Positions 6,949-48,499 of a stretch of 64,000 bases of DNA are shown here, one piece after another; the first letter of the stretch is position 1; each line of letters starts with the position of its first letter. The position numbers and the translations under genes were made by a program. Source of the stretch: Bugula neritina (taxonomy: Eukaryota > Animalia > Bryozoa); NCBI GenBank assembly GCA_964035545.1, contig OZ037765.1:27837504-27901503 (forward strand), written 5' to 3'. Below the pieces are notes generated by a model. It was not told the DNA's origin and did no database searches. It saw only the letters and a program-made list of their open reading frames with translations.

Positions 6949-14736
<7,788 letters not shown>

Positions 14737-19000: not shown

Positions 19001-22000
19001 TAGGTTTTAGGCTGCAGTCATATGCTAATTTGAAAGTCCTAGTTATTCTATTTCAGCACTTAACTAGAAACCTAGAAAAATAGATTCTTTACTAAAAACC
19101 ATGCTAAAACTGTTGAAGTTTCTCGCAATAAAAAGATAGCGCCATTAGTTTTTGGTAAATTTTCCATAACGAAATAGTAACCACTGATGACTCATTTATT
19201 TTAGACTCCATTGAAGCAGCAGTCACGCGTTGGCAGCACATCTAACGTATCTGAGTATCTAAACATGTACAAGGAGGCATCTGGTTCTTGCAGTGAAAAT
19301 TTGCCAGTTTTACTGAAAAATGTCGCTAGAGAGTCTGACACAGTCTGTGAGAAAGAAGAGCTGCCAGTTCATGGTACATCTGTCTTTACACAAGTACCTT
19401 GCGTAACTTGTCATAGCTTATTGCTCTGAGCACCTATAAATGTCAAATAGATTATTTTTATTACTGTGTTGAACCATCGACCAATTGTTTCTTCAGACAT
19501 TATTTTAAAAAAAATGGGCTCAGGGAATTATGGCACAGGTAGTAATGGCACAAATGGAAAGTAGCTAAAAATGGCATACAGATGTACAGATGTTAAATTT
19601 CTCCAAACCCCAACCCTTAAACCCTTACCTCAAACTCAAACCCCCATCCCCAAACCTAAACCCCCATTCCACACCCCAAACCCTAATACTGAAATGTGCC
19701 ACTTTTACCTACTTTGCCATTTGTGCCATTATTACCTGTGTCATTATTACCTTTGCCATTTTTACCATGCCATTTTCACCTGTGTCATTTTTACTGGACA
19801 CCCTTCAGACATATGCAAATAGATTTTAAACTCACTAAGTTTATAATTGAAGTAACACCCATGCAGGTGTACTTGTTTATACTTATTCAACCTTATGATA
19901 CCCACAAGGTGGTTTTAGAAATAGTTATTTCTATTTTGTGTAGAGGCGCATTACTATAGCTGTAAAACTTTCTAAGACAGGTTTCAGTGTATGTACCAAT
20001 GGAATGTACATATTATATTTAATAGGAACTGCCAAAAACCTTCTCAACATGTTTACCAAGGTTAATGAAGATACTAAGAACATGAAGGCACAACTCCATA
20101 AGCCTTCAGGTGTGGCTAAAACGGTGAGTATAATCTCAGTGGAGTAAGTAATAGAAGAAAATGATAATATTTTATGATATTCTTGTGCACGTGTATACTT
20201 TCTCTTAAAATTACTTCAAGAACAACTTTATGATACATAGTTTTTATGTAATTTTCTAAAAGAGCAAGGTTGAAATGTTATGAAGTTGACATACGTTATA
20301 GTGTGGTGGTTCGTGGAACTACCAGCAGCACAACATGTAGGGTCGCGTAACTGACCCGGAACAATGGATAGCCAATTAGCGTAGTTGATAGTTAGCAGCA
20401 ATTGTAGTTTCCCGCTGCTAACTCAGTCGAAGCTAGAGTGTGAAATAGATTAGATGTGTAACTTGTTTGGAAATAATGTATCGTTTTTATGATGTATAAT
20501 TGTGTGTAAAATATACTCGTTCACTCGACTTATCCTGGTGCAGTTCTATAGTAAATAAATAGACTCTCTGGATAGCACATCAACCCTAAATCTGAAAATC
20601 TTAACAGTGGTGGCAGCAGTGGGATAGTGCATCCAAGATGGAGACTGAAAATGCTGGAACTCAACCACCGGCAATCGAAGGTGAGCGTAGAGACAATGCT
20701 GTAGAGACAATGCCTGTTAACCATGTAGTAGAAGAGCGAAGGGTTCCGCGAGAACTAGCTGAGGACCGCTACAGGTTAAAGGCGCCCACCTTCACGGGTG
20801 AAGAGGAGGTGGAACAATTTATCCAAGAGTTTAGCGACGTAATGGACGTCGCCCAGTGGCCCCCTAGGGTGGCCTTGCTGAAGCTTAGAATGGCATTGAT
20901 GGACAAAGCCAAGCCTTATGGGCTGGGCGTAGACATTGATAATATCTTTGCTTCTCTGCGGGCCCGCTTCGGCCTCTCTGCTACAGATGCCAGGGCCCGA
21001 TTGCAGAGGTTGCGGCGTGATCCCCGCACCCCGTTGCGGGAGCACGCCGCCGCGGTCATGAAGCTGGCACAGATCGCGTACAGCGACTTGCCCCCAGTCA
21101 ACCGCGAGAGGTATACCCTCGACGCTTTCATAGCATCTGTCGACGATCTGGGTCTCCACCACCAGTTTCTAGCTAGGGGAGTCACCACCGTTGAAGATGC
21201 TCTGACTGAGGGGGAAGCTTACCTCCTAGCTAACCAAATGCATAAAAGTCGCGGAAGCTCCCGTCAAGTGGAGATAGACCGCGCAGACACGGCCGCGGGA
21301 CAAGGGGAGGAAACCCCCGCCGCGGCTGCCGTGTCCCAGTTGGCGACGGCATCGAAAGTCACTCAACTGACAGACATGCTAGCCAAGTTGATAGCAACAC
21401 TGACACCACAAACCCCAGTGAGTACCGCCCCTGAGCCCATGCGGCCATCGGCGCCGCCACAGGGAGAAACAGTCAGTTTTTGCTGGGAGTGCGGAAATCA
21501 AGGACATTTCCGCCGATATTGTCCCTTCCTAAATCAGGGGTTAAACTACCGCGGCCCGCAGATGTTCCCACCTTCCGCGGGCCGACGATGAAACCTCCAG
21601 GGAAAAAGAAACGCAGGTCACCCAGACGGGTACCGCGTACTGGCAACCAACAGTGGCAACAGCCACGACGGACCAGCAAGGGGCTTCGCCCCGCAGCTGC
21701 CTTTTCTATGCCCCTTCACAACAGATTCACAGGGCTACAAGTCCAAGAATCTGGATGGGAGCACACAAAGGTAGCTGAGAATCTAGCCTCGGCACCCCCG
21801 AGGCCTACCTACCACCGCCCCAAGAGACCTCCTTCGCGACCCAAAGCGAGGGAGGTACTCCCTGCGAGAGTAAGGCCTGAAGGGAGAGTTCAGGTGCAGC
21901 CCCATGGGAACAGCTATTTCTTGCCCGGTAAACTGGAAGGCAAAGCTGTTACTTTTCTCATTGATTCGGGCTGTACCGCAAACCTCTTAAGCCGCCAACT

Positions 22001-25000
22001 CTTCGACACCCTCAGTGCTAGGGTCAGGGGCGAGATGGAAGCATACGAAAGGGAATACGGCACCCTAGCTGACGGGTCGTGCCTTCCCTTCTATGGTATA
22101 ATTGAGCTGACGGGACGAGTCCGCGATCAAACGATCCAAGAGACGTTCATCGTCAGTCAGCTCAAGGAGGATGCTATCCTCGGGATGCCGTTCCTTAAAC
22201 GGCACGGATGTCACATAGATTTTAGCAGATCTGCAATGATGATGTCCGGGCGGGAACTCGCCTGCGTCGACAAGTTCGGCCGCCCTTTAGTGGGAGGTGT
22301 GCAAGTGGTACGCAACCGTACCATACCAGGCCGCTCCCGGGCTACCATTCACTGCAGGGTGAATAGTAACCGGATCTCTGGACTCGGGGTGGTTGAAGGC
22401 GCGCACGAAAAGATCCAACTTGCCAGCAGTCTGAATCAGCTGACTGAGCAAGGGGAGATCTTAGTGCAGTGCGTCAACCCCTTTACCGAGCCTATCAAGC
22501 TCCCGGCTGGGTCGATGCTGGGCCGTTTTCACTCTGTTCAGGAGGGAGACGTAGGCCCGTCGCTGGATGATGCGACGGAGGCACTCCCTCGACACCCTAT
22601 TCAGGGACGAGGGGCAGTCCCAACACATCTCCGGGAGTTATATGAAACAGCCAGTGGCGGCTGCGCGAGTAACAGGGAACGCCAAGCTATGGCTAAGTTA
22701 CTACGCGACTACGGTGATGTGTTCAGCAGCGGAGAGCATGACGTGGGACTGACTGGAATTGTCAGACACGAAATACCGCTGACTGCAGGGACAGTCCCTG
22801 TCCGGCAGCCCACGCGCAGGCTGGGGCCGGAGAAAGAGAAGGAGGTTAGCCGACAAGTACGGGATCTTCTGGACCGGGGACTGATAGAGCCCGCCCATAG
22901 TGCGTGGAGCTCGCCAGTCGTACTGGTCCGGAAGAAAGACGGCAGTTGGCGGTTCTGTGTGGACTACCGCAAACTCAATAGCGTAACCATACAGGACGCC
23001 TACCCTCTACCTCGTATTGACGAGTCATTGGACGCCCTAGCCGGCAGCAAGTACTTCAGTACGTTAGACTTGCTAAGCGGCTATTGGCAGGTTCCTCTGA
23101 GTCCCGACGCCCAAGAGAAAGCGGCGTTTATCACACGGGACGGTTTGTGGAAGTGGAAGGTGCTGCCCTTCGGGTTAACCTCCGCCCCAGCCACCTTCCA
23201 GAGGCTGATGGAACAAGTCCTTAGCGGACTCCATTGGAAGACACTGCTGGTCTACCTCGATGATGTCATCGTAATCTCTCCAGACTTCGAGACACATGTC
23301 AGTCGTCTGCAGGAGGTTTTCGAGAGACTCCGAGGTGCCGGTCTTAAGCTCAAACCTTCCAAGTGCGCTCTATTGCAGCCGGAGGTCAAGTACCTGGGGC
23401 ACGTTGTCGGTCGGAACGGCGTGGCAACGGATCCCGAAAAGGTACGGGCAGTAGAAGACTGGGTCACCCCCCAAGACTTGACCGGACTCCGGGCTTTCTT
23501 GGGGCTGGTAGGGTATTACAGGCAATACATACCAGACTTTGCGGGCATAGCCCAGCCGTTAAACCGGCTCACCGCAAAGGGAGTGACGTGGCAGTGGACT
23601 CCAGTCGAACAAGAAGCGTTCGACCGCCTCAAGGGCTGCCTCCTAATGGCGCCCATCTTGGCCTACCCAGACCCCACTCTGGAGTACATCCTAGACACGG
23701 ACGCCAGTGACCAGAATGTTGGCGCTGTGCTGTCACAAGTGCAGGAAGGCCGAGAGGTAGTAGTAGCCTACTACAGCAAGTCTCTCTCACCCGCTGAACG
23801 AAATTACTGCACTACCCGCAAGGAGCTGCTGGCAGTAATCAAGTCAGTGAAGCACTTCAGACCATACCTATATGGCAGGAAGTTCCGGCTGCGTACGGAT
23901 CATGCCTCGCTGATCTGGTTGTGCAGGAGAGCAGAGCCCTCTAGTCAGGTCGCCCGGTGGCTCGAAATCCTAGCTGAATTCTCATACCGGATCGAACATC
24001 GACCGGGCAAGAGACACAGCAATGCGGATGGGTTGAGTCGTCGACCTGACGGAGGTTGCAAACAGTGTCTCAACATCGAGAGGAGGGATGGAGGTCCCCC
24101 ACGATGCGAGTTGGAGACGCTGGCTCATCACGGAGCACCGTTTGACTGGGATCAAGGTCAACTCAGGCAAAGAGTTGATGAGTCCCCGGAGGATGTACAA
24201 AACCTCCGCGCCAACCCTGTACTGGCCGGTAATGTTCGAGAGCTGAAGAAGCTCCAAGAAGAGCTGCCTGGAGTCGTGGCGGACATATACCGGGCCAAAA
24301 GGGAAGGGCGACGACCCAGCGAGGAACGCATACGACAGGGATGCGCCGAATTCCGGCTATACTGTCAGCGTTGGGACTCGCTGCGGATCGGGCAGGATGG
24401 GTTACTAACCATCTCTCTAGCTGCCAGCGGCAGACACCCGGAAAGGAAGAGGGTGGTCTGCCCCACAGCCATCCGCCGTGAGTTGATTTGGGATACTCAC
24501 AAGCAGGCCCACGCAGGGGTCAAGCGAGTGATGTCCAAATTACGACTTCGGTGGTATTGGCCACAAATGGAGCGTGATGTCCGGCTCAGAGTCAAACAGT
24601 GTGAGATCTGCCAGGCCAGTAAGCATAGCCGCCCCCCTGGTGAAGCAGGACGGCGGAGGCTATACGCTGGTAGGCCCTGGCAAGTAGTCGCTGTAGACCT
24701 GGTCGGACCCATGCCCCTGACCTCCAGAGGCAATAATTGGATCCTAGTACTAACCGACCACTTTACTAGGTGGGCGGATGCTCTGGCTATCTCAGATGCA
24801 TCAGCCCCAACAGTGGCCAGGGCGCTAGACCAACATGTATTCTGTTATTTTGGGCTCCCCGAACAGATACACTCTGATCAAGGCGCTCAATTCCAGTCTC
24901 AACTGATGAGCGACCTTTGCCGCCTCTGGGGAGTAAATCAGAGCAGGACCACCCCCTACCACCCTCAAGGTAACGGGGTGGTGGAGCGCAACAACCGGAT

Positions 25001-28000
25001 GCTAGGTGATGCACTCCGGAGTCTCCTCCTTGGACGAGGTCAAGAGGAATGGGATACGGTGTTGCCGCAAGTCATGCGTGCATACCGTAGCACCCCACAC
25101 ACCAGTACTGGTGAGACCCCAAACCTCTTGATGCTCGGGAGAGAGACTCGTGTCCCTGACCATCTCACCTATCACGTTCCAGAGCAAGATAACTCAGTCC
25201 ACGAGTATGCCAGTGAACTAGTGGAACGGATGAAGGCCGCACACGATATACTGCGCCAACAGCAGTGGAAGGTGCGGCACGAAGATTCCGATGAACCACC
25301 CCTCTACCAGAGGGGAGATAAGGTGTGGATGGTCAATTACCGTAGGCGCCGCGGACAGGCTGATAAGCTGAAGCCTAAGTTCGTGGGCCCCTACGTGGTT
25401 GTCGAGGCTATGCCCAATCATACGTACAAGATTGAGCGCTCAGGACAGGTATCTATCCAGAATGAGTCTCGCTTGAAACCGTATTGGGCTAGCCCCGGCG
25501 GAGTGGGAGAAGCCCCCCCGTTGTTAGAGCCCAGGAGGCAGACAACAACGCGCGGGCGACGGCGGCATGGACCTGAATACGAAGTGGTCATACCGCGGGA
25601 GGAAAACTTGGTGAGAGAGGAGCGGCAGCTTTTGTCAACAGAAGCGTGTCCGCCACCGCCAAGTCTAATTCCATCACTTCCAGAAACCGTGCCGGTTCCG
25701 GAAGTGCAAACCCCCACGGAGGGAGGGGCTCCATTCGGAGAACAAGAAGAGGTGACTGCTGACGGTGAAGTAGAGACGCCATTAGAGGCCCCTACTAACA
25801 AACCGGCAAGCGTGTCACCCCCCCTAGAAAGGGGACAGCGTACGAGGCAACCCCCCGCATACTTGAAGGACTTCGTATGTGACTGCGTTAAAAGCGGCAC
25901 GCATGAAAGTCTAGGGGAAAACCGTACGAGAAAAGAATCGAGCAAATGTGGGAGTTGTCAACACCACGGAAATATCAACTTTTGCATCGGCGGAAATAGA
26001 AATGAAATTCATCCGCCGGGTGCACAAAGTCTTAATCACGCACCCCAACCACGTTGCTCGATCTTTTCATACGCTGATGCAGTCAGGAGTAGACGTGTTT
26101 CTAAGCAGTAGTTCAAACCATTTCACACATTCAGTATGTCTTACGACAACAGATCGTGGGGTGAGTTAACTATATCTTAATACGAAACTAGATTGCATCG
26201 CTCAGCTCTGACTCACTGAGTCAATCGAGCTGGAGATAGGTTAGTGAAATACCGTAGTAAGAACTCAGTTGACTTAGAGATTTTTATAATCTCATTGCAA
26301 TACGTGTTCTATCTGACTATTCACTACCATAAATCTCTACGAGGTAACTGAATTAGGAGTTGCCAAGCTGTTCAAGCTGACAACACAGCAGTGTACTGTA
26401 TTAACACTGTTGAAACTTTTTCAGATTACACTCGACCCGCTACAACCAGGGTACGGGATAGAACACTTCCCGCTCCGTATCCAGAGGAGTATGCTAGCGG
26501 TGACCGGCCTGAGCCACTACGCCGCCGTTGGCGGTGGGTGTCTCCACAAACAGAAGAAAAAATAGAAACAGCCTGGGGGTCCAGAGGACGGACGAGATGC
26601 CAGATCTGTGGTGAAGATTGCGCCTCTCACCGCTCCCTTAAACTACACGTCAATGCTCATCTCCTACTGACATTCTGCCCCTGCGGGTACAATGATGTGT
26701 ATCCCTACCCCGTCACCAGACACAGAGCGGCGGGCTGTTTCCCTGGAGAAAACTACGTGGTCGACGCTAAGCTATACCCGGAGTTCCTCACACTTATACG
26801 ACCTCTGGTGAAGAAGGCCATGCTGTTAGCCGTTCTGTCCTCGGGGTTCCAACGTGTGTTAGACAACGCCCGCCAACAATCCCCGTTGGTGTCTGACCGC
26901 CCTCAAATCACATACACCCCCGAGGAAACTACATATCCAGAAGAAGGAGAGATCTCCCCTACCCCGGCGAAGAGACGAACCAAGTCCCCCAGTCCACCCT
27001 TGCGCCGCAGACGGACACCGTCCCCCGACCCAGTCCGCCTAGCCACAGTAGAAGAACGCCTCCTGCGATTACAAGAAGAATTCACCCAGCTGGCACCAGA
27101 TCTACTTAACACTACAACCGGACTCTTCCAGCTAAAGGGATCCGTATGCCGTATGAAACGGAAACTGCGTACATGCCAAGCCAAGCACCGGCGTGCCCAA
27201 CAAGGACTCTAGTTAGGCTACCCAGAATACTCTGCAACTTCACATCTTGTGAGGAACCAAGATCTCGTGCAAATGCTTAACTGCTAGACAGGTTATTCCT
27301 TGTCTAATACCACAGCTAGCTAGTATTCCTCGTCTATCTACAGCTGGCCAATTGTATGCAACGGATCGTTACGATGACTCTGTATTATTATTATGTCTCT
27401 TCCTGTATATTATGTGTTATTTTTGTCCACTGATGTATGTAGTTATTAATGAATGTTTTTTTATATATATCAGAAAGATGGCTTTCTGCTGGTGGGGGCG
27501 GTGTGGTGGTTCGTGGAACTACCAGCAGCACAACATGTAGGGTCGCGTAACTGACCCGGAACAATGGATAGCCAATTAGCGTAGTTGATAGTTAGCAGCA
27601 ATTGTAGTTTCCCGCTGCTAACTCAGTCGAAGCTAGAGTGTGAAATAGATTAGATGTGTAACTTGTTTGGAAATAATGTATCGTTTTTATGATGTATAAT
27701 TGTGTGTAAAATATACTCGTTCACTCGACTTATCCTGGTGCAGTTCTATAGTAAATAAATAGACTCTCTGGATAGCACATCAACCCTAAATCTGAAAATC
27801 TTAACAATAGTGCAATAAAATGTTTATTTTCTAGTGTATAAGTTATACATTTACTTTTTTTGCTAAATCAACATTATAGATGCTGTAAATAAACAAATAT
27901 ACAGTAAGTAAAATAGTAGAAAGTTATGTTTGCACTTTTTCACCCTAGCTGACTTAAGTAAACACACCTAACTTTCTATATTCATCGTATCACAGCATTT

Positions 28001-30164
28001 TAGTCATTTACAGCAATGGAAGCCAAAGAATTTACAATCTAAGTCATCTAAACAGTCATCAATTGCCACTAATTCCAACTCTGTGACTGAGTCAGCCAAA
28101 GCAACAGAAGTTTGCAGAGAAAATGATGGACAGGTAAACGAAGAGGAGTTGCCAACATCTGGTGAGCTGCTGCTGTACTGGAGAGAGTTTAGTTTCTCAA
28201 CTAGTCCCCCCTATCCTCGTAGTAACTGAATCTATTGTCAGCAGCATTATCTGTAGTCTTGTTATGCAGAAATATTATTAATATGTAGCTTCCAATAACT
28301 CAAAGCTTTTTGATTAGCTGAGATTTCGATAGAGATAGGGGAGAATAAGTATGGAAGAATCAAGAATATAGCAATACCTGTGGTGGTATTTTTCATAATT
28401 ATTTGCAGACAAATCTTTAGCATATGATGGAAGCAAAACTGTTAATAAACATGTAATAGTTTTGCTTACTTTTTTATTTTAAACATTCTAATTATTATTG
28501 CTCTTATGACTCTATTATGAGTAAATTGAAACGTCCTTTAATGCTTATTTTAGTTTTTGAAGTCTCATTTTCATGTCATTTTTATAAATATTCATTATAA
28601 GGAATGTCAGTCTATATTAGTCAATTTACTGATTAGTATTGAATATTTGTAAAGCTGATAAGTTGATTTTATTGTAGGGTGTACACAGGGTTTGCTGGAC
28701 AAATTTAGCGAGATGAATTCTAAAGGTGTTAAAGGCAATGCAGATGAGGTAAATGTTTAAATCAAGTATAGAACCAGCTGCATGTTGATTGTTTTATAAA
28801 AAAATTACCACGCATGAAGTCAAACTGTATAAAAACAGCTATCTATGAAACTCTAAAGCTGCAAAAAAAACAGACAAAAGTCATTAGATAATGCTAATAT
28901 TTTAAATATTTGATCGAACTTCAGCAGAATAATATAAAGTAATATAAACTATAACTGTTACAGCTAATATATGATTCTTGTAGTTTTCTTAAATGAATAG
29001 TTTGCCTCGAATGACTTTTTTCTTAGGCTAATGAAAGCTTAGAAAAGAACTGTAACAAAGAGAAACCTGAAAAGAAGAAAACCTCTGGAGGCCAACTCTC
29101 TGCTTTGTCTAGGTATTTCTTATCTTTTAATATAGTTTTTATACTTACAAGTGTAATACTAAATGAACTATATAGAAATTATTTGTTTTCGTAACAATAG
29201 AAAACAATTTCATTAGATACAAATTGCTGATTTACTAGTTATTTTATAACTTAGACCTTTAAACTTTTGTATCAATTGCTTTAAAGATATACAATTTCTT
29301 ATGCGCATACAAATGCTAACTCGATTTTGCACTCACATTGCTGTAATGCTTGTACAGGTTTAAACAAATGGAACAGAAGGACAATTCTAGTACTCAGCAT
29401 TATCCTTCTGCAGCAGCTCGAAAGGTAAACAGTTGAATATTGAAACTGAAAGTCTGTATGGAGCTGCAATGCATGTAATATCATGATCCAGGGTGCTAAT
29501 TGCACTCTGGTTTAGAAGTTTTGACCATTGAAATATAATTTAAAATATAAAGTTTACATAATAACATTGAATCCTAAAGTTGTTTTTTAACAGTTTTAAA
29601 TATCACATCACTTCAGCCAATGTACAATCAATGCGCTAATAAATTATATAAATTTTATTTAAATTTAAACTACTGAATATTCAATTTATATTAGCATATT
29701 TTTTGCAGCTTGAACATACTACCTAGTTTTAAATACTTCCATCTCCTTTACACTACAGTAATGCTAAAAGTTATAGTATTGCAGACCTGCACCTTGAGTT
29801 GCAAGTGATAAAACAACTATAAACATGGTCATATATTTATAGCCTTTGAGAGATGATCCAAAGAAGGTATGTAAAATAGTGTTTTGCCCTTGACCCCCAA
29901 GCCTGATGACCAACTGCCTGCATTTATTTGTGACTTCCATGTGTCCATATAATAATCAAATAAAACTTGTTCCACAATTTATGCAATCCTTTGCTTAGCT
30001 TTAAATTACACTTCATTGTATCTACAAAGTCATACAGCATTACACATTAAACTTTGTTTGATCTTATTTGCAGGTTTCGTAGAAGTTGGAGATGGCTGTT
30101 CAGTGCAACACTGCTAACAATTTTCTGTTATTTGCTACTCAGTGATATAAATATTCAAACATAG
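16045..30164 (+). CDS. Uncharacterised multi-exon protein with four approximately 40-aa repeats (ExxP...VxRExD...EELPxxGxTKxLLxxF)
   Basis: Phase-consistent GT-AG exons: 16045-16564, 17673-17773, 17865-18016, 18380-18464, 19205-19373, 20026-20123, 28014-28161, 28678-28748, 29027-29112, 29358-29424, 29843-29866, and a last exon from 30074 (stop at 30082 or 30164 depending on isoform). The repeat is rebuilt across exon junctions, which supports the model. Confidence 0.8.
16941..17318. mobile_element. Foldback/MITE-like long inverted repeat (about 180-bp arms, 14-nt loop)
   Basis: 16941-17122 is the near reverse complement of 17137-17318, e.g. tagtacacactggaaatctccagtttttagcta versus tagctaaaaactggagatttccagtgtgtacta. 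Confidence 0.85.
19501..19802. mobile_element. Non-autonomous inverted-repeat element (MITE-like) with TGCCA subrepeats, a degenerate (CCCTAA)-like core and 10-bp flanking direct repeats
   Basis: Arm 19521-19579 pairs with about 19695-19752. CTTCAGACAT occurs at 19491-19500 and 19803-19812. Confidence 0.7.
20302..20606 (+). repeat. 5' LTR (305 bp)
   Basis: TGTGG...TTAACA, identical by eye to 27502-27806. Initiator-like TCAGTC at 20423, AATAAA at 20554, and a 9-bp stem GTTAGCAGC/GCTGCTAAC at 20391-20422. Confidence 0.98.
20608..20625 (+). promoter_or_regulatory. Primer-binding site complementary to the 3' end of tRNA-Leu
   Basis: TGGTGGCAGCAGTGGGAT lies 1 nt after the LTR. Its reverse complement ATCCCACTGCTGCCACCA matches animal tRNA-Leu(AAG/TAG)-type 3' ends plus CCA. 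Confidence 0.85.
20638..21591 (+). CDS. gag: Gag (317 aa) with CCHC zinc knuckle
   Basis: CWECGNQGHFRRYC fits CX2CX4HX4C; capsid-like APTFTGEEEVEQFI region; position right after the PBS. Confidence 0.93.
   Translation: METENAGTQPPAIEGERRDNAVETMPVNHVVEERRVPRELAEDRYRLKAPTFTGEEEVEQFIQEFSDVMDVAQWPPRVALLKLRMALMDKAKPYGLGVDIDNIFASLRARFGLSATDARARLQRLRRDPRTPLREHAAAVMKLAQIAYSDLPPVNRERYTLDAFIASVDDLGLHHQFLARGVTTVEDALTEGEAYLLANQMHKSRGSSRQVEIDRADTAAGQGEETPAAAAVSQLATASKVTQLTDMLAKLIATLTPQTPVSTAPEPMRPSAPPQGETVSFCWECGNQGHFRRYCPFLNQGLNYRGPQMFPPSAGRR
21480..26111 (+). CDS. pol: Pol polyprotein: aspartic protease, reverse transcriptase, RNase H, integrase (intact)
   Basis: LIDSGCTAN (PR); WRFCVDYRKLN, LPFGL, YLDD (RT); DTDAS, KELLAV, TDH (RH); H..H..CEIC, DLVGP, SDQG, VERNNR, PKFVGPY (IN). 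No stops over 1543 codons. Confidence 0.97.
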   Translation: MLGVRKSRTFPPILSLPKSGVKLPRPADVPTFRGPTMKPPGKKKRRSPRRVPRTGNQQWQQPRRTSKGLRPAAAFSMPLHNRFTGLQVQESGWEHTKVAENLASAPPRPTYHRPKRPPSRPKAREVLPARVRPEGRVQVQPHGNSYFLPGKLEGKAVTFLIDSGCTANLLSRQLFDTLSARVRGEMEAYEREYGTLADGSCLPFYGIIELTGRVRDQTIQETFIVSQLKEDAILGMPFLKRHGCHIDFSRSAMMMSGRELACVDKFGRPLVGGVQVVRNRTIPGRSRATIHCRVNSNRISGLGVVEGAHEKIQLASSLNQLTEQGEILVQCVNPFTEPIKLPAGSMLGRFHSVQEGDVGPSLDDATEALPRHPIQGRGAVPTHLRELYETASGGCASNRERQAMAKLLRDYGDVFSSGEHDVGLTGIVRHEIPLTAGTVPVRQPTRRLGPEKEKEVSRQVRDLLDRGLIEPAHSAWSSPVVLVRKKDGSWRFCVDYRKLNSVTIQDAYPLPRIDESLDALAGSKYFSTLDLLSGYWQVPLSPDAQEKAAFITRDGLWKWKVLPFGLTSAPATFQRLMEQVLSGLHWKTLLVYLDDVIVISPDFETHVSRLQEVFERLRGAGLKLKPSKCALLQPEVKYLGHVVGRNGVATDPEKVRAVEDWVTPQDLTGLRAFLGLVGYYRQYIPDFAGIAQPLNRLTAKGVTWQWTPVEQEAFDRLKGCLLMAPILAYPDPTLEYILDTDASDQNVGAVLSQVQEGREVVVAYYSKSLSPAERNYCTTRKELLAVIKSVKHFRPYLYGRKFRLRTDHASLIWLCRRAEPSSQVARWLEILAEFSYRIEHRPGKRHSNADGLSRRPDGGCKQCLNIERRDGGPPRCELETLAHHGAPFDWDQGQLRQRVDESPEDVQNLRANPVLAGNVRELKKLQEELPGVVADIYRAKREGRRPSEERIRQGCAEFRLYCQRWDSLRIGQDGLLTISLAASGRHPERKRVVCPTAIRRELIWDTHKQAHAGVKRVMSKLRLRWYWPQMERDVRLRVKQCEICQASKHSRPPGEAGRRRLYAGRPWQVVAVDLVGPMPLTSRGNNWILVLTDHFTRWADALAISDASAPTVARALDQHVFCYFGLPEQIHSDQGAQFQSQLMSDLCRLWGVNQSRTTPYHPQGNGVVERNNRMLGDALRSLLLGRGQEEWDTVLPQVMRAYRSTPHTSTGETPNLLMLGRETRVPDHLTYHVPEQDNSVHEYASELVERMKAAHDILRQQQWKVRHEDSDEPPLYQRGDKVWMVNYRRRRGQADKLKPKFVGPYVVVEAMPNHTYKIERSGQVSIQNESRLKPYWASPGGVGEAPPLLEPRRQTTTRGRRRHGPEYEVVIPREENLVREERQLLSTEACPPPPSLIPSLPETVPVPEVQTPTEGGAPFGEQEEVTADGEVETPLEAPTNKPASVSPPLERGQRTRQPPAYLKDFVCDCVKSGTHESLGENRTRKESSKCGSCQHHGNINFCIGGNRNEIHPPGAQSLNHAPQPRCSIFSYADAVRSRRVSKQ
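21540..21604 (+). promoter_or_regulatory. Predicted -1 ribosomal frameshift signal: G_UUA_AAC plus H-type pseudoknot
   Basis: Heptamer 21540-21546 in the gag frame, 5-nt spacer, stem 1 CGGCCCGC (21552-59)/GCGGGCCG (21577-84), and loop TTCCC (21565-69) able to pair with GGGAA (21600-04). Pol is in the -1 frame. Confidence 0.78.
26136..27212 (+). CDS. Retrotransposon ORF3: spliced zinc-finger / SP-R-rich / coiled-coil protein (about 270 aa), not env
   Basis: Exon 26136-26160 (MSYDNRSW+G), intron GTGAGT...TTTTTCAG at 26161-26424, exon 26425-27212 in frame. CQIC-x12-HVNAH C2H2 finger followed by CPC-x12-H-x4-C. Confidence 0.8.
27491..27501 (+). promoter_or_regulatory. Polypurine-tract-like G-rich primer site
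   Basis: GGTGGGGGCGG directly abuts the 3' LTR. Confidence 0.65.
27502..27806 (+). repeat. 3' LTR (305 bp)
   Basis: Exactly 7200 bp downstream of the 5' LTR; no mismatch seen. Confidence 0.98.
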
Positions 30165-30749: not shown

Positions 30750-33700
30750 TTAATTAGTTGTGTCTTTAACAGAACTCTTGTTAGAATACTGGCTTTGTAA
30801 TGCCTTTTCAATGTGTTGTTTACTTATGGAAAGTACATCTTGAATCTCCTTCTGACGCAAGGACATGTGCTGAGCATCTACTGCACCAGGTGGTGTCTGC
30901 TGACCAGAGAGGGATTCCTGATCACTCATCTGACTAGCTTTCTGAGAGTTGGCTCTTCGCACGCCTTCTAGAATAGACTTGTGAGACGACACCACTTGTT
31001 GCTTAATCTGCTGCTTACGGTCAATACCAGACTGTCCAAGATGGACGCCGAGCTCTGCCTTCGGACATATAGGCTGATGGTGCAGGACATGCTTCACACT
31101 ATTCATGACTTGATGGAGGTTGTCTTGAGCCTGCTTGTTGTGTGGCTCAAACACAGACTCCGGGACAGCCAGTTGACTTGGCTTTATCAGGTTCTCCCGC
31201 TCGTGTCCAGCTGTTAATACTCTCTTTACGATACTTTGCACCGTGTCAGAATTGGGCTGACAATGTGAGAAGTTAAAATTGTTTCTGGTCATTGGTGAGG
31301 GAACCTCACCTCTGGGGTATGGACGGCCACTAGATAAATATTGCTGTACAAATTGTAACTCTTTGTCTAAGTTTTCTAACTTCTCCTTCTTTGGTCCAGT
31401 TGAATTCAACTGCAGAAGCTTTCCGACTATTGTCCGTAAATGGTGAGCTGCACCCACATCTAATGGAGGTGTGTGAGGTCTAGACCCGTCACTGTTGTAT
31501 CCACCACCGTCTTCGGATTGCTGCTGATTGCATCTTGCACAAGAAGCCATATGGAGCTTCTGTTTGTTCAGTAAATACTCTTCTATCTGAAGTTCATGAG
31601 CTCTTTGTAATCGCTCCTTTTCTAAGGTTTGCCTGAATAAAAATAATGAAAGAAAATTTAAATTACATACTAGTAGTTCTATAAACATAATTCATAAATG
31701 ATGTTTTATAATAATAATGAAAATGTGAATTCCAAAAACTACCTTTCAATGAGCTGCCTGAATTCATCGTCATCACTTGATAAGTCACAAGCGTCAGCTC
31801 TAGAAAGCTAAACATAAAATTCAATAATTGTGAAATGGCAAAAGGTTACAAGATTATGGTCTTTTAAAAAAACCAAATGTGAAATAAAATGTGGAAACTA
31901 CAATTGAAATAATTTGTAACTATCAGTTTCAAAAAATGTGTTTAGGATAGCAAAAAATGATGTATAGCAAGCATTAGCCGATCACCAGAGAAAGGGACAA
32001 TTTCACCACACACACAAACATGGGCTGCAGGAGCTGATAAGCTGATGAGAAAGGTAGCCTGTACATATTATACATAAGATACGGTTAACAGCAAGAGCTC
32101 AACTATAACCAAGGTGAGTAAGGGAGGGTTTGACAGAAGGATACCTGAAAATTACGGTCTGCAGGGGTTTGAACTGGTCCGCCATTGCTTACTCGTTTCA
32201 CCATTCGTGCTATCTTAACAACACTAGTCACTGGATCACCCTCGTATGTAGGAGGCTGAAATTTTTGTTGATTACTAGAAGGGAGGACGTAATTTAGGCT
32301 GGCTGCATGATTGTATGTAGGATTTATCTGCCCATTATTCTGGAGCTGAGAAACAGGATGGCTAGCTGCCATAGCTGCCGACAGACTCTCAGCATTCAAA
32401 GATGAGTTGAGAGAATGCAGACCGGCATGGGAGCTGGCAGCACTTTCATTGGTGGTTAGCGAATCAGAAACAGTCGAGACAAACGATAGATTGGCAGCTT
32501 CTGACTCGGCAGCAAGGGCATCAACAATAGCAGCGTTAGCAGCAGATGCAGCACTGCAATGCTCGCAGCTTTCAATGTGAGATTCAAGTGTATGCCCACA
32601 TGGAATAGAATGTTTTCTCTCAAAAATATTGGCTAACTTCTCTGAGAGAATGTTGTTAGCTCTGTTGCCCTCGGCTTCAACCAGATGTTCCCCGAGGCCT
32701 GCAGGGACGCTGTCAGTAGTCTTACGGCGACTCTCTTCTGCCTGCTGCGTCTGCTTACCAGCCGTGTCCATGGAGGGGCTCCAGGACATGCACCTCTGAA
32801 CAGAAAGTAGTTTACTCTCGGGCTGCGCAGGCTGGTCACTAGTAGTTAAAGTAGTTGGGTGCGATGAATAGGAAATTATTTTCTGTCTATTCACAGAGCT
32901 ATTGTGATTATCATAGCAAGAAGTAAGATCTGCTACATGATTAAGACTAGGACAGATAGTAGAATGAGAGAGTGAGTTAGCATTGTCCCCCGCCACCACT
33001 GCATCTAATACTTTATCAGAGTTCTCAGAGGAAACATGTATATTTGCAGCCTCTTTATAGAAACACTCAGACGTCAACTGCTCAGAATTACAGTGAAGAC
33101 AGTTTGACGAAACCGAGAGCATGCAAGGTTGAGCAAGAGAGCAATTTGGCTCAATCAAGTTGTTAACACTATTCACTATAGCACCAGTGCCAACACATTT
33201 CGTCTGCAGTTCTTGACAGCTACTTACAGAAGAGGCTCCATCTAACACATCTGAAGTTAACTCTTTAGCGTTCTGTTGGGGATCTTCAACAGTACTCGCA
33301 ATAGCATTAGTAATGAAAGGTCCATGTAACGACGAAGGTGTGGGATTAGTAAGCAAAGGACCAGAAGCAGTGGTGGTAGCAGCATGAAATTGGCGGCCAC
33401 CAGCTACCTCTAAGCCACCCACAATCTCGCCTTCTGACACTACATTAATGGTGGAAACCGCATCCAGAGCTGGAGCATCTGTGTTCACCTTATGTCTTGT
33501 AGAGGTGGTGGATACCACAGGCTCTGCTGTACTGACACTGGTGACTGATGGGTCTGGGGTGATGGGAGAACCAGCTTTACTATCTGCTAAATAGTCATAT
33601 ATAACATATATAACATCACATATTTCTACTCCAAGAATGCCAACTTATCAATCTAGATAATCTATGCTGACTCATAGAGCAGAGACTGTACACAAATCTG

Positions 33701-36700
33701 TCAGCTGATGATTACTATTAGCTCACCAGTTGATTTGCCGCACATGCAGTAAGAAATATAATACAACATGAAGAACTGTTCATCGCTAGACAAACAACTT
33801 GCAGTAGGTTTAGCTTACCAGAAGGTTCTTTGACAGGCCCAATAGAGAACCTCCCAACTCTGGTAGATTTGGCTTGTAGACTGTTGAGTCGTGCATCAGG
33901 ATCCTCGGCAGCGGGCGTGGTGAGGTCAGAAGACGAGTCTACTTCCGGGATAGTCTGAGACTGGAGGACACCAGCACTTTGAGGAGCTCGGTCTAAGACA
34001 GACTCATTCTCTGCAGGACTCGTCTGCGTGGTGGAGGAGCTGAGCTGAGGGGCTGACATGGTGTTGGAGTTGGCGTATAGAGAGTTGGTGGGCTCAGCTT
34101 CAGGTATGATGCTCCTACAAAACAGAGCTGACGGATGTTGATCCAACAGGCAGCAATTATTACACACCCGACAGCGTCAGCCCTTGGCAGCGGAAAGACC
34201 ACACACATGCATGTGACAGCTGAATACTGTAAGGTGACATGAACTCACTAGCTCTCACTCATAGCGAAAACCAACAGTTGAAGAAAACATAACAGCGTAT
34301 GTCTTAGTACAGACACAATGTGAACAGCAATTCCAACAACAGCGAACATATGAACAATGCTGTCGATACAACCAACTCACCACGGATTGGCTGAAGATGT
34401 GACAAACTTAGGAGTAGGAGAGTGTGACAAGCTCCTGCTAAAACAATTACATACTGCAAGTGGACCAGTAGTTGGCTAAACAGGAGGAATGTATAGAGTA
34501 GTTTAATCAGATACGTATCAACATGATGAAGCAGAGCAGAGTAATGAACAGGGGAAACAAGCCAACAACTCTGGTGGACTTACCTAAAACCAGGCACTGG
34601 TTTTATTTTAAGTAATGTGGGTGATGAGCAACAGCTTAAACTATAAGATATATTTCATCTATGAATATGATAAAGCAAACTGAAGTATCCATGATTATAG
34701 AACTGAATTTTATTATAGACAAATTGTAACAATGGGTTTGTCTATGCAGAAGTTAGGAGAAAACAACAAAACAGAATAAAAGCTTTGCTTTGCAGAATAA
34801 TAGCAAGTTTCAGCAGACAGTATAAGATAAAAGTCATGATATAACAGCAGGAAATGTTGTGAACTAGAGAGAGAGAGAGAGACTAAGCTAGTAGTCACTA
34901 GGAAACTAATCAATATTGTCTGGAAGTGGGATTAGCAAGAGGCCAGCCAATACCAAGGCATTGCTCCTGCATCACACTTTCTATTGCTAGACTACTTAGT
35001 ATAGGAATATGAAGCATTCGGCATTGCTAGGTTTCCAGCTCTCTGGTCAATTTGAACAAATGTTGGTACAATACAAGACAGCAGAAAGATGACAGTACCT
35101 ATGCTGCTGATCTAACACAGACGGGTGAGTCAGCGACTGAGTCTGAATGCTGTTGTAATTCCAGTTTTCTTCTTGCCTTCCTTTCCCCAAAAGAGTCTCC
35201 AGACTCTTCCCCAGTGCATTCATATCCAGGCCTTTCTTGGCAGTCTTATTCTCATCAGCCTGTAAGAGCATTACTATACAACAGCACGTGTTGGGAGAGA
35301 TTGCATCATCACATAGCTGGGGATGCAAGGGTTAAGAATAAACAGCTCTATAGCTTGTAATGGCCATTTCACATCAACTCCCAAAGGTTAACTTGAGACT
35401 TTAAACACAATAAATCAATCAGAAGAATGACTAAAATAGAAAGTGTAATGCTGATGGGAAAGCAAGCGGGTTGAGCCAGCACCTGCATCTCTCCACTTAG
35501 TATTCAATTCAACACTTGCATCCCTGTGTGCAGCTGAGTAGAATATACAAGACAATGTAAACAGTGGGTATGCTATAGTGCTCTAGATGGTGAAGTTTAG
35601 CATGAAGTGACTGAAAATTTACCAGTATTCGATAATAGAGAGTAAGAGAAGTGTTGAATTAGGACACAGCTATAATTAATACATAATCTGATTAAAATAA
35701 TCAATCATCTCTGGTCAGAAATATTGAATAAACCGGCAACTAAGGGGTCAAGAATGAGGCGGGTGAACAGGTAACTGGTGGATGAAATATGCGGCTGAAT
35801 AAGCTTATAATAAAATATGATGGTAGTAACTGTAAGCAGCAGCAGAAAGAGCAGCAGCGGGTGTAGCTACAAGTGCAGCATTTCTTACAGAAGACATAGT
35901 TGAAAGTTGTTGTTGAGAAGATTGTGAGGCTTTTCGAGGACTGGTTGGAGACATTGTAGTGCCCTGAAATTACAACCACAGAAAATACATCCTCCATACA
36001 AACTACGTACTCTGTATTGTATTCCAAACACGCTGAGTGAAGTGTAAAAGCAATAGAAGAAGTGGGACTTACAGCGTGGTTAGGAGTACCGGGATGAGCT
36101 GTCGGAACATTTGATCCATTCATGGCAGCCAAAGGATGTTTAGCTGACGAGGCAGCAGCACTACCTTGTACAGGAGTGGAACTACCGCTTCCATCCAACT
36201 GTAGAGTCATTGGTAAACCTGTTTGAATTTGCAGATTTTGAGGAAGTGATGTTAAAGCAGGAAGTGGCATAGAAGAGGAGGGAGTAGCCACTGTGTTTGT
36301 CTGACGGGATACCATGTCACTATGTGACGCCGCCCGGAGTCTAGCCGGTTCATCCAGTGAACCCCCATCTTCGCCACCAACTGATGTTGTGGAAGGAACA
36401 GACACCAAAGACTGGCTTTCTGCTACACTTATCTATAACCAATGTAAACAGTGCTATAGCTGTGCTCAGCAAACTGCAGCAGTGATATGCTATTAATTTA
36501 TCAGCAATGTCAATAACTCTGAAAAACTAATATTTATGCTTGGTATGCTTGATAGGAGTCTTCAAGCCACAAGTCGGAATAGCTAGAAGTGATTGGCAAC
36601 AAAAAAGGTATTTTTCATTAAGACCACCAGTTTAGAGTTTTGGACATAACATAAAAAGGTATTGAGTACTTAGTATTTCTGCCCCAACAGCTCGGAACTA

Positions 36701-39700
36701 TTTACTATAAATATCTGCCATTTCCTACGAATCACAAAGTAGAATTTCAAATTATTTGATAACCAGCCTTTCTTGAAATAAAATTATATTTGTGTAAACA
36801 TCATTTTATGGAGAGAACTGGTTTGCATAATTGTACCTCAACTAATTATATTTCTACATGTGTATTACATAAATATTAGAGAATATATGACTGAAATTAT
36901 TTTATAAATTCCTACAACCTGAAATTAGCAAGAATAACTACCGATACTTTTTAAACAATATACACCGATATATCTATTCAGGAATTGTCTCCCCCATTGT
37001 AATTTTGACTGAGCAAAAGTTCAACTGCAGGCAGTAGTTAATATAAATAGAATAGGAATCAATACCAAGTTATATAATGTAGTGCTAATTTTATGCATTG
37101 TAGCCGAGCAATTGTATTTAGTCACTGGGTGTTGGTGATCAAGTTGCTAGTTTAAGTATTGATGAAAACATTAGTGATTGATTTGCAGTTCATGTGATTT
37201 GAACAAAAACAAAATATTCATCATTACACAATCATATGTTACGGCAACATTAAGCAGTGTGATACGCAGCAGTGAGAGCCTAAGTATTCACCTGAGATTC
37301 AGAGTTGGAATTCCGAAGTATGGTAGATGCAGAATCTGCGCCTGCGCCAGATGAAAGCTGCTCAACAGTGCTGTCTGATTCACTGAGTTCATTGCTCTCT
37401 CCGTCCACGTATAACTTGCGCTGTATTGATTGACATGATTAATAAAATATCACATCTATAATCACGAAACTCCATGAGTTTTACATGACAAAATTTATTA
37501 GTTGAGCCACTACACTTGTTTATACAGCATATGAAAGCCCCAGGTGCATTTATTCAAAATAACCTTAGACAGGTTTAGAAATTGACTGCCAGGTTAGAAA
37601 GTGTTGTTAGATTCATAATAAATACAGCCTACAGGACTACGTTTTTATATTGAAGCGTTACCAGCATGTAAAAGGCCAATGCTGTAGTTTTGAAAAGCAT
37701 GAGTTTCTATAAACACTCAAAATATTTTCTTTTCAAAGCAAAAGCATTACTAAACAATGAAACTATAAGCAGTAGGAAATGAGACATTAAAGCATAACGT
37801 CAACATTTCCAATAACTTGGACTGTTAGTCCAGCTTTATTACTAGCATTTCATATAACAACTTAGTCAATATATTAGTTTTAAAACAGAAATTGCATCAT
37901 TTACAAGTAAAGGGAATAACCAAAAGCATACATTCTTACAAACATGACTGTGTGGGTAAGTTGTGTAGTGCAGACTCGGTATTAGCTTGGGCCCTCTATT
38001 GTTCTATGCTGTGTCTATTGTTTAGTGTTTACCATTACATTGTCTAGGTGAGGCCATTGAAAAACATGAAAATTGCTTTCAAGAACCGGATGAATGAAGA
38101 CTAAGAGTTTCGACTAAACTAACCGCCAAATCATATTCTTTAAAAAAGCCAAGTACAGAAGGGAGTGGTAATCATAAACCTAAGTAAAGAATGTTTCTAC
38201 TTTTGTGTAGGGATTTCTTTATGAATGAATGATCAAGCACTTGCAGTAGACAGCTACTGCACACAAAACAACACAATACAATGGAAGAGTCGAAACTGAG
38301 AAGTGATGATGACAACTATTGTAGTTGAATTATTCATACACAATGTAAATGTTGCACTACAAATTCCACGAATGATTTATCTAATAGCAATAGCAGTCTA
38401 GGGGTACTTCCGCCATGCAATGTGCTGCGTGATATTTTGCCGTGTAAAATCTTACGACACTCGTGATACAGTAGTTGCAGTCAGAAATGACAAGTAAAAT
38501 GGCCTGCTTTCAACACAAGTCAAACCAATTCAAGTATCATTACAGTATTAATCAGTTATGATTACAAGTATATTAAAATTAACAGAAGGAGTGAGAGGGG
38601 GCAAAGAGAGGGGCAGAGAGGGGGGCAAAGAGAGGGGCAGAGAGGGGGGAGGGTAATACACCTACCTTGACTACCCCATCACTTGGCAAGTTGTCTTCAT
38701 AATCTTTAGCTGTTTGTGAGCCCTTTCTACTCAGTGTGGGGCTGGTGGTGGGGCTATCCGACAACTGATCTAAATATACACACAAACCATGCTAAGCTAT
38801 TCATCAACAGTCACATACTTATCAGATCTATTTCAAGGTTAAGTGAGAGCAGCAGTATATCTAATTACAAGTTATCCAGCGTGTCCTTGATCAATGTCCA
38901 AGATATAAATATATCATTTATTCTATAAATGTGTATGTATAATATTGATTAGCCTATAAAATGCTTACTATAAATTTGTATATTCAATTGCTTTGACAAG
39001 GTAATAGCTTGATCAGGGTTGTTCTTGTGCTCCATCACCAGCGATACAATGCTCTCTATCTGCTCTCTCGCCATTGACAGGTGCTCGTCATTTAGCAACT
39101 TTTCCTCCATCTTGAAAAAGGAATAAAACAAACCATCACTTTTACAACAGGAACTAAACACCACATTCCCCTAGTCAACACCACATTCTCCTAGAATTGA
39201 TTCGCTGTATACATCAATAAATACTTCAGCTTCTAGTTTTCCTGTTGAGAACACTTGACACATAATTGGCCATTCAATATCTCTTCACTATAAGTTTAAA
39301 CAAGTCTTCAAACACACAAGAAATGTCAACAGCACTATTTAGCTGCAGAAGGAAAACACAGTTTATAACAGATTATTTTGTAATTATTTGAAAGTATTGG
39401 TTTCTAACCAAATTGTTGATGATGTCGTCAGCTGTATTGTGATTGTAATCGAAATCGAAAGTTATTGTAGCCTTTCCGGTGTCAAGTGCACATGTGACTG
39501 TAAGAGCATCTTTCACGGGCATGATACTGAGAATATGCAAGAGAGGTTTGTTGTCAGTTGTTCTACGCCGGCCTTTCCTTCCTTTTTTCTTTTCGGCCAA
39601 AGGAGCTTTAGCTTCACTCGGTAGATCATCACTGAACACAAAATCATAAGTCATGAGCTAGGGCAGCTCATGCATGAGTCATTGTATCTGTATATTATAT

Positions 39701-47517: not shown

Positions 47518-48499
47518 AATGAGTCTTTACATATGCAGATGCACTTATGCAATGATACTTGGCCTGAGCAATGCTAACATGATTGTTTTATCAGAGTAGC
47601 TAATCTTCCAGCATAGATCCTTGGGTTAGCTTTGCTATGACATTTTCTCCAAAATTTTCTACAAAGAAATTAGTAAAGTTGAAGTTTTTAAAATCATTTT
47701 TAGTAAAACTTTTTCAATTTTTCATTGACTAATAGCTTAAACCCAGCAGAATACACATATACCATTATTGTACTTTTAAATATTATTAATACTCTGTTAC
47801 AGTATGTATCTAGCTCTAAAAAGAAGTCATAAGATTAAAATTGAATGCATATTGTGTAAAAAATTGTAATAGTTATGATATTGATAGTAGCAGATATATA
47901 TAGAAACTACTAAGGCTGACCCTAGAACTATTATTAACTATTTAACTATTTTATTGGTCACCATGAAAATATTAGTAATAGTTATAATTTGACATTTATA
48001 TTTAATCTGAATAAAAATTACGACATGTATGCTGATGTCAAAATTAGTATTTCTTATCACAGGTTAATGAATTAGATATTCATATTTATAATAGCCAATA
48101 TGAATTCTATGCGAGACTAAGAATAAGAACATTGATACTTTAATACCCTTAGCTGTACAGTTCTAGCTTTAATATAGATATAACTTAATAGAAACATATT
48201 TCTATAGATACCGGTAACATTGACATTTACATTATGATTGTGACTTATGAGTGTATTTATGATGTTTATTACTATCATTATGTTATAAAATAAAGACTAA
48301 GAGTTTTGAGATAAAATTAAACCTACTCTTAGTAAATAAATCAATAATAAGTCATTATAATAACATTAATAATAAATAAAATTATAAATTGCTCATATTG
48401 AATTTGATAACTACAAAATTAAATTAATAAATTAAAAACATCCGATTTATAATTTTAATTATATTTTTATCATTATTATAGATATTATTATAACTTATT

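Follow-up and report, generated by a model that had tools for sequence, protein, structure and literature searches.

In a 64,000-nucleotide stretch of DNA from the bryozoan Bugula neritina (assembly GCA_964035545.1, contig OZ037765.1, positions 27,837,504 to 27,901,503 of the forward strand; hereafter the window, numbered from its first letter), we found a complete long terminal repeat (LTR) retrotransposon of the Ty3/gypsy type at 20302-27806 on the + strand, which carries a third gene, open reading frame 3 (ORF3), between pol and the 3′ LTR. ORF3 is very probably a real accessory gene whose RNA is spliced. While accessory genes other than env are already known in kind from Ty3/gypsy elements, the protein family described here is new. 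A preliminary description of this DNA had called the gene element-encoded and non-env, and our analysis agrees with it, as the gene is conserved, its product has no membrane segment and the Pfam and fold searches listed no env family for it.

The preliminary description had also presented 26136..27212 as an intact ORF between pol and the 3′ LTR. An open frame does lie there and ends at 27212, but it is interrupted by in-frame stops at 26178, 26217 and 26349, which rules out a single ORF running from an ATG at 26136 to the stop. The stop-free frame extends over 26352-27212 (286 codons), and its first ATG, at 26820, is located downstream of both zinc fingers. With three stops and no ATG ahead of the fingers, ORF3 is therefore either damaged or spliced.

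We found candidate splice sites that would join the start of gag to ORF3. The donor AAG/GTGAGC (the slash marks the border of exon and intron) at 20680/20681 falls in gag codon 15, in phase 1, and is the sole site scoring 8/9 against the consensus among the 433 GT sites of the element. The acceptor TTTTTCAG at 26424/25 is likewise in phase 1 and is the sole AG behind a pyrimidine run within 26112-26650. Both sites have left a footprint in the proteins of related elements. Among the 59 gag relatives with a full leader (out of 120 listed), the residues over the donor are E in 53/59, G or S in 56/59 (52+4) and E in 59/59, in a leader that is otherwise variable in length and sequence; E-G/S-E corresponds to the reading of (G or A)/GT GAG. 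At the acceptor, S or L followed by D or G is found in 20 of the 21 ORF3 relatives that reach it (21 among 72); these residues correspond to TCAG or TTAG in frame, and upstream of it these 20 relatives run on in two different frames. The 21st, P0025, begins with 14 residues equal to the start of the gag relative P0129 and then passes straight into the exon, so that the joint is exactly as predicted; it has the only gag-like leader among 190 family proteins. P0025 could derive from a transcript or have arisen by reverse transcription of spliced RNA, and a chance deletion landing on both predicted sites is unlikely. Judged from these sequence features, ORF3 is likely expressed from a spliced RNA in which the first 14 gag codons are joined to the exon at 26425.

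Several observations weigh against this joint. By plain pyrimidine count the acceptor at 26424 is outranked within the element, and P0025 is a single sequence, read as protein only. In RNA run X2, which covers the part of the exon at 26573-26791, none of the 21 low-depth contigs (depth 1-10) bridges the splice joint. Furthermore, of the 21 relatives extending to the acceptor, 18 have a Met at most 40 residues downstream of it, so that the gag start may be dispensable for them. The relatives without such a downstream Met (P0002, P0003 and P0048) make up the sub-lineage of the window, for which an exon further upstream is therefore required. As to P0025 itself, its contig is 5320 bases long and, if DNA, would be a non-autonomous reverse-transcribed derivative carrying ORF3 only.

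The ATG at 26136 may still serve as a start, via a mini-exon spliced to 26425. A donor GGG/GTGAGT at 26160/26161, in phase 1 from this ATG, would open a candidate 264-nt intron (26161-26424) that contains all three stops, and the ATG may therefore be a real start through splicing. This donor scores 7/9, as do 16 other sites, and the TTCAG found upstream of the mini-exon could be an acceptor or, read as TCAGT, what we take to be an initiator-like word. Contigs of runs X5-X7, which hold only relatives less than 95% alike and are DNA or of unknown kind, pile up at 26141-26181 and 26387-26427, two places that are both non-coding in the simple reading, and have loose ends that begin at 26128-26130 and 26175. 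Twelve of the 18 indels were listed: six of these are located at 26126 and 26174-26183 and none within 26127-26173, the others being found at 26268 and 26281, in a compensated pair at 26480/26483 and, for two, past the stop. From this pattern, the block 26128-26175 may be a mini-exon, an internal promoter or an RNA signal. A doubly spliced RNA joining the gag leader, the mini-exon and exon 3 was considered and rejected, as exon 3 would then be read in a different frame with 46 codons to a stop, and P0213, in that frame, shares little with it.

Disruption or neutral evolution of the frame in related elements had been named beforehand as an outcome that would speak against the gene; what we found is mostly the opposite, the frame being kept among diverged copies. 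ORF3 has 72 relatives at E ≤ 0.001, with 45-98% identity, and a library clustered at 50% gave 107 ORF3 matches, down to about 27% identity. All eight zinc ligands are present at the window's spacing in 27 of the 39 close relatives that span the domain, many of the others being visibly decayed copies, and the ligands are kept in dozens of distant relatives also. In the best 40 of 193 difference rows, 19 of 32 exon substitutions are synonymous and 13 nonsynonymous, with 0 stops, compared to an expected synonymous share of 26% (all changes) or 35% (transitions; p = 0.004 against this stricter value), in what is a rough test on the best-supported rows, judged one by one. Frameshifting indels among those listed fall outside the exon, with the exception of the compensated pair. 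By these sequence measures, the coding exon of ORF3 is under selection.

Homologues had been expected to lie between pol and the 3′ LTR. P0025, P0201 and contigs across the spacer agree with this position, but the contig scans could not add to it: neither the metagenome contigs scanned with ORF3 alignments nor the viral contigs scanned with alignments of the reverse transcriptase (RT) and ORF3 returned loci. P0201, which is 40% alike in the domain, opens like the pol tail of the window (14/25 identical, E 2e-4 among 190), and at least one more distant member therefore lies behind pol.

Next we consider the protein. Residues 24-153 are predicted as one domain (predicted local distance difference test, pLDDT, 95.7; predicted template modelling score, pTM, 0.88; 84 aligned relatives), and beyond it the model of the whole protein shows a linker predicted as disordered and a C-terminal helix of 53 residues (208-260). 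The first finger of the preliminary description, C-x2-C-x12-H-x3-H, is present as stated; the motif of the second finger is also present, but it is no free-standing finger, being part of the same compact domain. Conserved features are a W-x-S/T helix, C-x2-C-x12-H-x3-H, a 5-residue hydrophobic linker, C-x-C-G-x11-H-x3/4-C and V-D. Averaged over 46 aligned close relatives, identity to the window falls from 0.58 within the domain to 0.30 in the linkers and reaches 0.76 along the C-terminal helix. This helix, predicted over residues 208-260, bears out the claim of a heptad helix at the C-terminus, whereas the basic Ser/Pro tract described earlier is present but is a peculiarity of a sub-lineage and not a defining module (an RRRRTPSP tract in 3/72 relatives). 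More widely kept are an R-Q-Q/K-S-P site behind the domain (52/72) and a KRRLR-type C-terminal patch (48/67). Distant members share the plan of domain, low-complexity linker (often with a basic cluster) and C-terminal heptads, the latter being found by a crude score in 21 of the 31 checked.

No 19-residue hydropathy window exceeds 1.5, consistent with the reported absence of a signal peptide and of a transmembrane (TM) segment, although no dedicated signal-peptide predictor was run; this anatomy excludes a role in membranes. As had been proposed, the product looks like a nucleic-acid-binding protein and, from its basic patches and its lack of a membrane segment, like a nuclear one. The pattern of a leucine-rich nuclear export signal (NES) in the C-terminal helix is present in 7/67 relatives and absent from the window's helix; the two NES-like matches in the window protein are both inside the zinc domain.

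Pfam returned no family above cut-off for the window protein (PF00096 at 13.1 bits versus a curated 25.2), and only weak C2H2 and coiled-coil matches for the relatives (47 and 84 scanned), with PF00096 at E ≤ 0.01 in 7/84. Similarly, the ESM Atlas gave unnamed clusters at 0.88-0.96 plus generic C2H2 clusters, recognition being below the bar of the tool. A match to an already characterised accessory family had been raised as a possibility, and no named family matches ORF3. By sequence comparison, the zinc-finger domain is an unnamed protein family. Its only named relatives are the bryozoan proteins XP_067940964 (Watersipora) and KAF6040923 (Bugula), which are among four of the retrieved proteins that have two domains, and a tree of 53 domains places the two Watersipora domains in a 24-row branch together with the window's group (support 98/89). 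P0246 and P0296 both begin with a similar Y-x-G-x-T-x-L-Y-H-Q stretch, followed by the zinc domain; this hints at a conserved host gene that is based on the domain.

Accessory regulators are characteristic of complex retroviruses, with Tas in foamy viruses, Tax and Rex in human T-cell leukaemia virus (HTLV) and Tat and Rev in human immunodeficiency virus (HIV). Like these, ORF3 is a small, likely spliced gene by the 3′ LTR, and its product is predicted to be, as theirs are, nuclear and oligomeric. Unlike them, it belongs to an element with a Ty3-like RT and without env, it has no conserved NES, and no match to them in sequence or fold surfaced in the searches run.

Among Ty3/gypsy elements, Cer1 of C. 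elegans encodes CERV, a spliced, gag-sharing nuclear protein that is needed for export of the genomic RNA (PMC10309623). The preliminary idea of a 'complex' Ty3/gypsy element is not new in kind, as CERV is already an accessory protein of this description (PMC10309623). ORF3 is also a Ty3/gypsy accessory gene, likely spliced and sharing the gag N-terminus, with a joint indicated indirectly by P0025 and the footprints, and the two proteins are alike in having a Cys-rich finger, a zipper helix, a candidate basic nuclear localization signal (NLS) and a proline-directed site (PMC10309623). They differ in that CERV has 517 aa, five exons, H, M and G domains, a C4-type loop and reportedly no homologues outside nematodes (PMC10309623), whereas ORF3 has about 276 aa, follows pol in an env-less element and combines a C2H2 plus CxC-H-C domain with a coiled coil at its C-terminus, the comparison being one of descriptions and not of sequences.

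The LTR elements of bdelloids carry ORF3s that encode a GDSL esterase, a DEDDy nuclease, and TM and coiled-coil proteins (PMC5408684). Like these and like the additional ORFs of plant elements (PMC7264820), the gene described here is a family-specific non-env gene between pol and the 3′ LTR. The bdelloid and plant ORFs are, however, enzymes, membrane proteins or antisense ORFs, and no zinc-finger ORF3 is described in the available parts of PMC5408684 and PMC7264820; 'zinc finger' and 'C2H2' have 0 occurrences in PMC5408684. The sORF1 of the MDG1 group in Drosophila is also a small nuclear accessory protein of an env-less Gypsy group, but it has a helix-turn-helix prediction, is located upstream of gag and is unspliced (PMC11952523). 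Taken with sORF2 of the MDG1 group, these cases indicate that accessory genes other than env have turned up repeatedly (PMC5408684, PMC7264820, PMC11952523). Our literature search found no zinc-finger ORF3 of such kind, with no mention of such a gene in the available parts of PMC13524379, PMC13269885 and PMC6238403; Repbase, Dfam, GyDB, subscription papers and supplements may hold one.

Our preferred, still tentative proposal is that ORF3 binds DNA as a dimer and, in this form, either activates transcription from the LTR of its own element or protects it. Under this hypothesis, the spliced RNA would be an early product encoding ORF3, which would re-enter the nucleus and raise the output of full-length RNA from the LTR. 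An env-less element under host silencing would gain directly from such a regulator. Foamy virus Tas acts likewise on the output of its own element. The proposal starts from the observed anatomy, exon conservation, splice footprints and single fusion and adds a predicted fold and a predicted coiled coil; the nuclear location, suggested by the basic patches and the lack of a membrane segment, the dimerisation, the DNA binding and the LTR as target are putative. In favour of DNA are the zinc pair of DNA-type geometry, the basic finger helices, the zipper-like tail and the lack of a conserved NES. Basic residues are conserved on the helices of both fingers, and finger 2 of distant members has D or E at +2 in 50/59 and R or K at +6 in 38/59. 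Among the best rows of the structure comparison with VIA, those of low root-mean-square deviation (rmsd) are all DNA-bound tandem C2H2 pairs, namely those of Kaiso (ZBTB33), SALL4, ZBTB38 and CTCF, matched by model residues 25-85 (Z 3.0-3.6, 50-57 residues, rmsd 2.7-3.1); no other fold match recurs. Finger 1 fits the C2H2 type and the fingers superpose weakly on these pairs. They differ from them in that there is no TGEKP-type linker to a second canonical finger, the linker being five mostly hydrophobic residues, in that finger 2 is CxC-H-C, and in the extra helices and strands that wrap around them.

Part of the evidence speaks against DNA binding at the LTR. The best Z among the 48,161 chains compared with VIA is 3.6, which is below the meaningful level (Z under 8), and a Foldseek search of PDB and BFVD gave no match at E ≤ 0.001; these nulls neither show a new fold nor exclude known families. 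The +6 position of finger 1 is hydrophobic (L in 24/24 close relatives) and Y-P-Y-P replaces the R-D motif of finger 2 in the window's lineage, so that classical base read-out is doubtful. Finally, CERV, the only nuclear accessory protein of a Ty3/gypsy element to have been studied experimentally, acts in RNA export and is dispensable for transcription (PMC10309623).

An action on RNA is possible but more doubtful. In this proposal ORF3, made from the default-spliced RNA, would bind intron-containing RNA in the nucleus, multimerise via its coiled coil and license export or block splicing, as a switch of the CERV or Rev type. The gene logic is that of CERV (spliced, with the gag N-terminus, a Cys finger, a leucine zipper, a basic NLS and a proline-directed phosphosite; PMC10309623), and the R-Q-Q/K-S-P site and the KRRLR-type patch are kept in most relatives, as given above. 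The strongest donor of the element is in gag codon 15, and all gag/pol RNA therefore retains the 5.7-kb intron. This intron (20681-26424) is more structured than its shuffles (mean z -1.85 over 35 windows), which does not hold for the ORF3 exon with the 3′ untranslated region (z -0.35, 12 windows) or for host DNA (-0.37 in 35 windows and -0.64 in 14). However, structure is also predicted for the opposite strand of the intron (mean z -1.39), there is no single peak like that of a response element, as 20 of 74 element windows have z < -2.5, the NES-like C-terminal pattern is limited to few relatives and is not found in the window's helix, and the fold hints favour DNA-bound fingers. A discrete structure in the spacer like the Rev response element was rejected: the spacer has z -3.27, yet with 20/74 windows below -2.5 its structure is not special. 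The most stable RNA windows of the element are at 21602-21861 and 25002-25161 on the + strand (z -4.8, -6.6 and -5.8) and are candidates for packaging or response elements.

It is improbable that ORF3 acts instead as a protein adaptor, in which the two-zinc domain would be the interaction surface of an integration-targeting or Gag/integrase cofactor or of an inhibitor of silencing proteins. The hydrophobic +6 of finger 1, the Tyr/Pro-rich finger 2 of the window's lineage, the packing of both fingers in one compact domain and a C-terminal helix whose identity of 0.76 is above the need of a plain dimer zipper would suit such a role, but distant members keep basic residues on both finger helices, and the observed insertion, in ordinary intron-like DNA, shows no sign of targeting. 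That a host zinc-finger exon was captured and is carried without use to the element is very improbable. Although the domain is also present in the bryozoan proteins of Watersipora and Bugula, and the Watersipora domains group in the window's branch, these proteins are only about 30% alike, while in many diverged copies of the element the frame is preserved along with the zinc ligands and the two splice footprints, and the exon has an excess of synonymous changes. The top matches of ORF3 are other copies of the element family, contrary to the recently captured host exon considered in the preliminary description. Recent or neutral capture is largely refuted; an old useful capture or host domestication fits better. 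A divergent env or fusogen is hardly credible: ORF3 does occupy the env slot and is likely expressed in an env-like manner by splicing from the gag start, but its maximum 19-residue hydropathy of 1.5 is inside the folded zinc domain, its Cys and His form a zinc-finger pattern, and no env family was found by Pfam for the 47 and 84 members nor by the fold searches.

Returning to regulation of the LTR, we can extend the proposal to a circuit that is speculative and, as a whole, unlikely. An env-less Ty3/gypsy lineage of marine invertebrates would have a foamy-virus-like circuit, in which the conserved block 26128-26175 close behind pol, as internal promoter or mini-exon, would give rise to an early zinc-finger transactivator, a second splice would place the same exon after the gag start, and the protein would drive or shield the LTR. 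The domain would then be an old, unnamed one that is present across element lineages and was exchanged with bryozoan host genes.

The element itself (Table 1) has hallmarks of Ty3/gypsy, including a pair of TG...CA LTRs, a target-site duplication, a primer binding site and a polypurine tract (PPT). Its pol domains are in the Ty3/gypsy order protease-RT-RNase H-integrase, and the closest solved structure to its RT is that of Ty3 (E 1e-85; runner-up 3e-53). It is not a member of the Retroviridae, as its RT is nearer to that of Ty3 than to any retroviral RT and it has no env. With LTRs identical over 305/305 bp, this is an intact and very young copy. In sequencing run X1, 6246 contigs match the element (85-100% alike), compared to one contig for each flank; the family therefore consists of many diverged copies in X1, contig depth being no measure of copy number. 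The primer binding site is presumably of the tRNA-Leu type. After the integrase, at 25870-26000 (+), the pol tail is long and Pro/Glu-rich, with a Cys/His cluster C-x-C ... C-x2-C-x2-H ... C.

Table 1. Features of the retrotransposon and of ORF3, in window coordinates.
Feature	Position	Strand	Remarks
Target-site duplication, 4 bp, ATAG	20298..20301 (left), 27807-27810 (right)	+	flanks read directly
5′ LTR, 305 bp, TG...CA	20302..20606	+	same sequence as 3′ LTR
Primer binding site, begins TGG 1 base past 5′ LTR	20608..20625	+	sequence read directly
gag, 317 aa, single CCHC knuckle near C-terminus	20638..21591	+	zf-CCHC just E 0.15; 130 relatives at E ≤ 1e-10
gag leader of 14 codons + 1 base, a likely 5′ coding exon for ORF3	20638..20680	+	donor score, relatives, P0025
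pol, in the -1 frame relative to gag, with protease, RT, RNase H and integrase (H2C2 finger, SH3-like C-terminal part)	21435..26111	+
Probable -1 frameshift signal, G UUA AAC read in the gag phase ahead of a GC-rich hairpin of -21.5 kcal/mol	21540..21587	+	gag/pol overlap; putative function
Candidate mini-exon with ATG 26136	26135..26160	+	suggested by phases, contig pile-up and flanking indels
Non-coding spacer or intron end with all three stops	26161..26424	+	acceptor TTTTTCAG at 26424
ORF3 main coding exon, 261 full codons	26425..27212	+	276 aa with gag leader; 270 aa with mini-exon
Compact two-zinc domain, 130 residues	26496..26885	+	W-x-S/T helix, finger 1, finger 2, VD strand, helices
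Finger 1, C-x2-C-x12-H-x3-H	26598..26660	+
Finger 2, C-x-C-x12-H-x3/4-C	26676..26738	+
Basic Ser/Pro tract in disordered linker	26955..27026	+	closest relatives only, 3/72; mostly pLDDT <50
C-terminal helix, predicted coiled coil ending in basic patch	27039..27206	+	best-kept part among close relatives
Purine-rich PPT-like tract adjoining 3′ LTR	27491..27501	+	sequence read directly
3′ LTR, 305 bp	27502..27806	+	LTR comparison

Exon-like stretches, read by eye, flank the element at about 20026-20125 and 28000-28162 (+). The arrangement suggests that the element is inserted in sense orientation within an intron of a host gene; its strong splice sites and its poly(A) signal could interfere with that gene. 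Elsewhere in the window, exons of a WD40 gene, which we take to resemble WDR48/UAF1, are located at 8018-13995 (+), and one of these exons is directly followed by a tandem array of 21-nt units (about 8170-8800). On the opposite strand, long low-complexity exons and a kinase N-lobe are found at 30750-47526 (-), presumably from a gene resembling WNK kinase.

Retrotransposons are usually regarded as simple, having gag, pol and sometimes env, and work on the accessory proteins of Ty3/gypsy elements covers only a few, with CERV as the clearest case. ORF3 would be a second, structurally distinct solution with the logic of a gene spliced onto gag, in a young multi-copy element. It opens to testing whether LTR elements gained regulatory accessory genes more than once, earlier than the retroviruses or in parallel with them, and how an env-less element balances spliced versus full-length RNA or escapes host silencing. 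As ORF finders miss or mis-start such genes, more of them may hide in elements that are already annotated.

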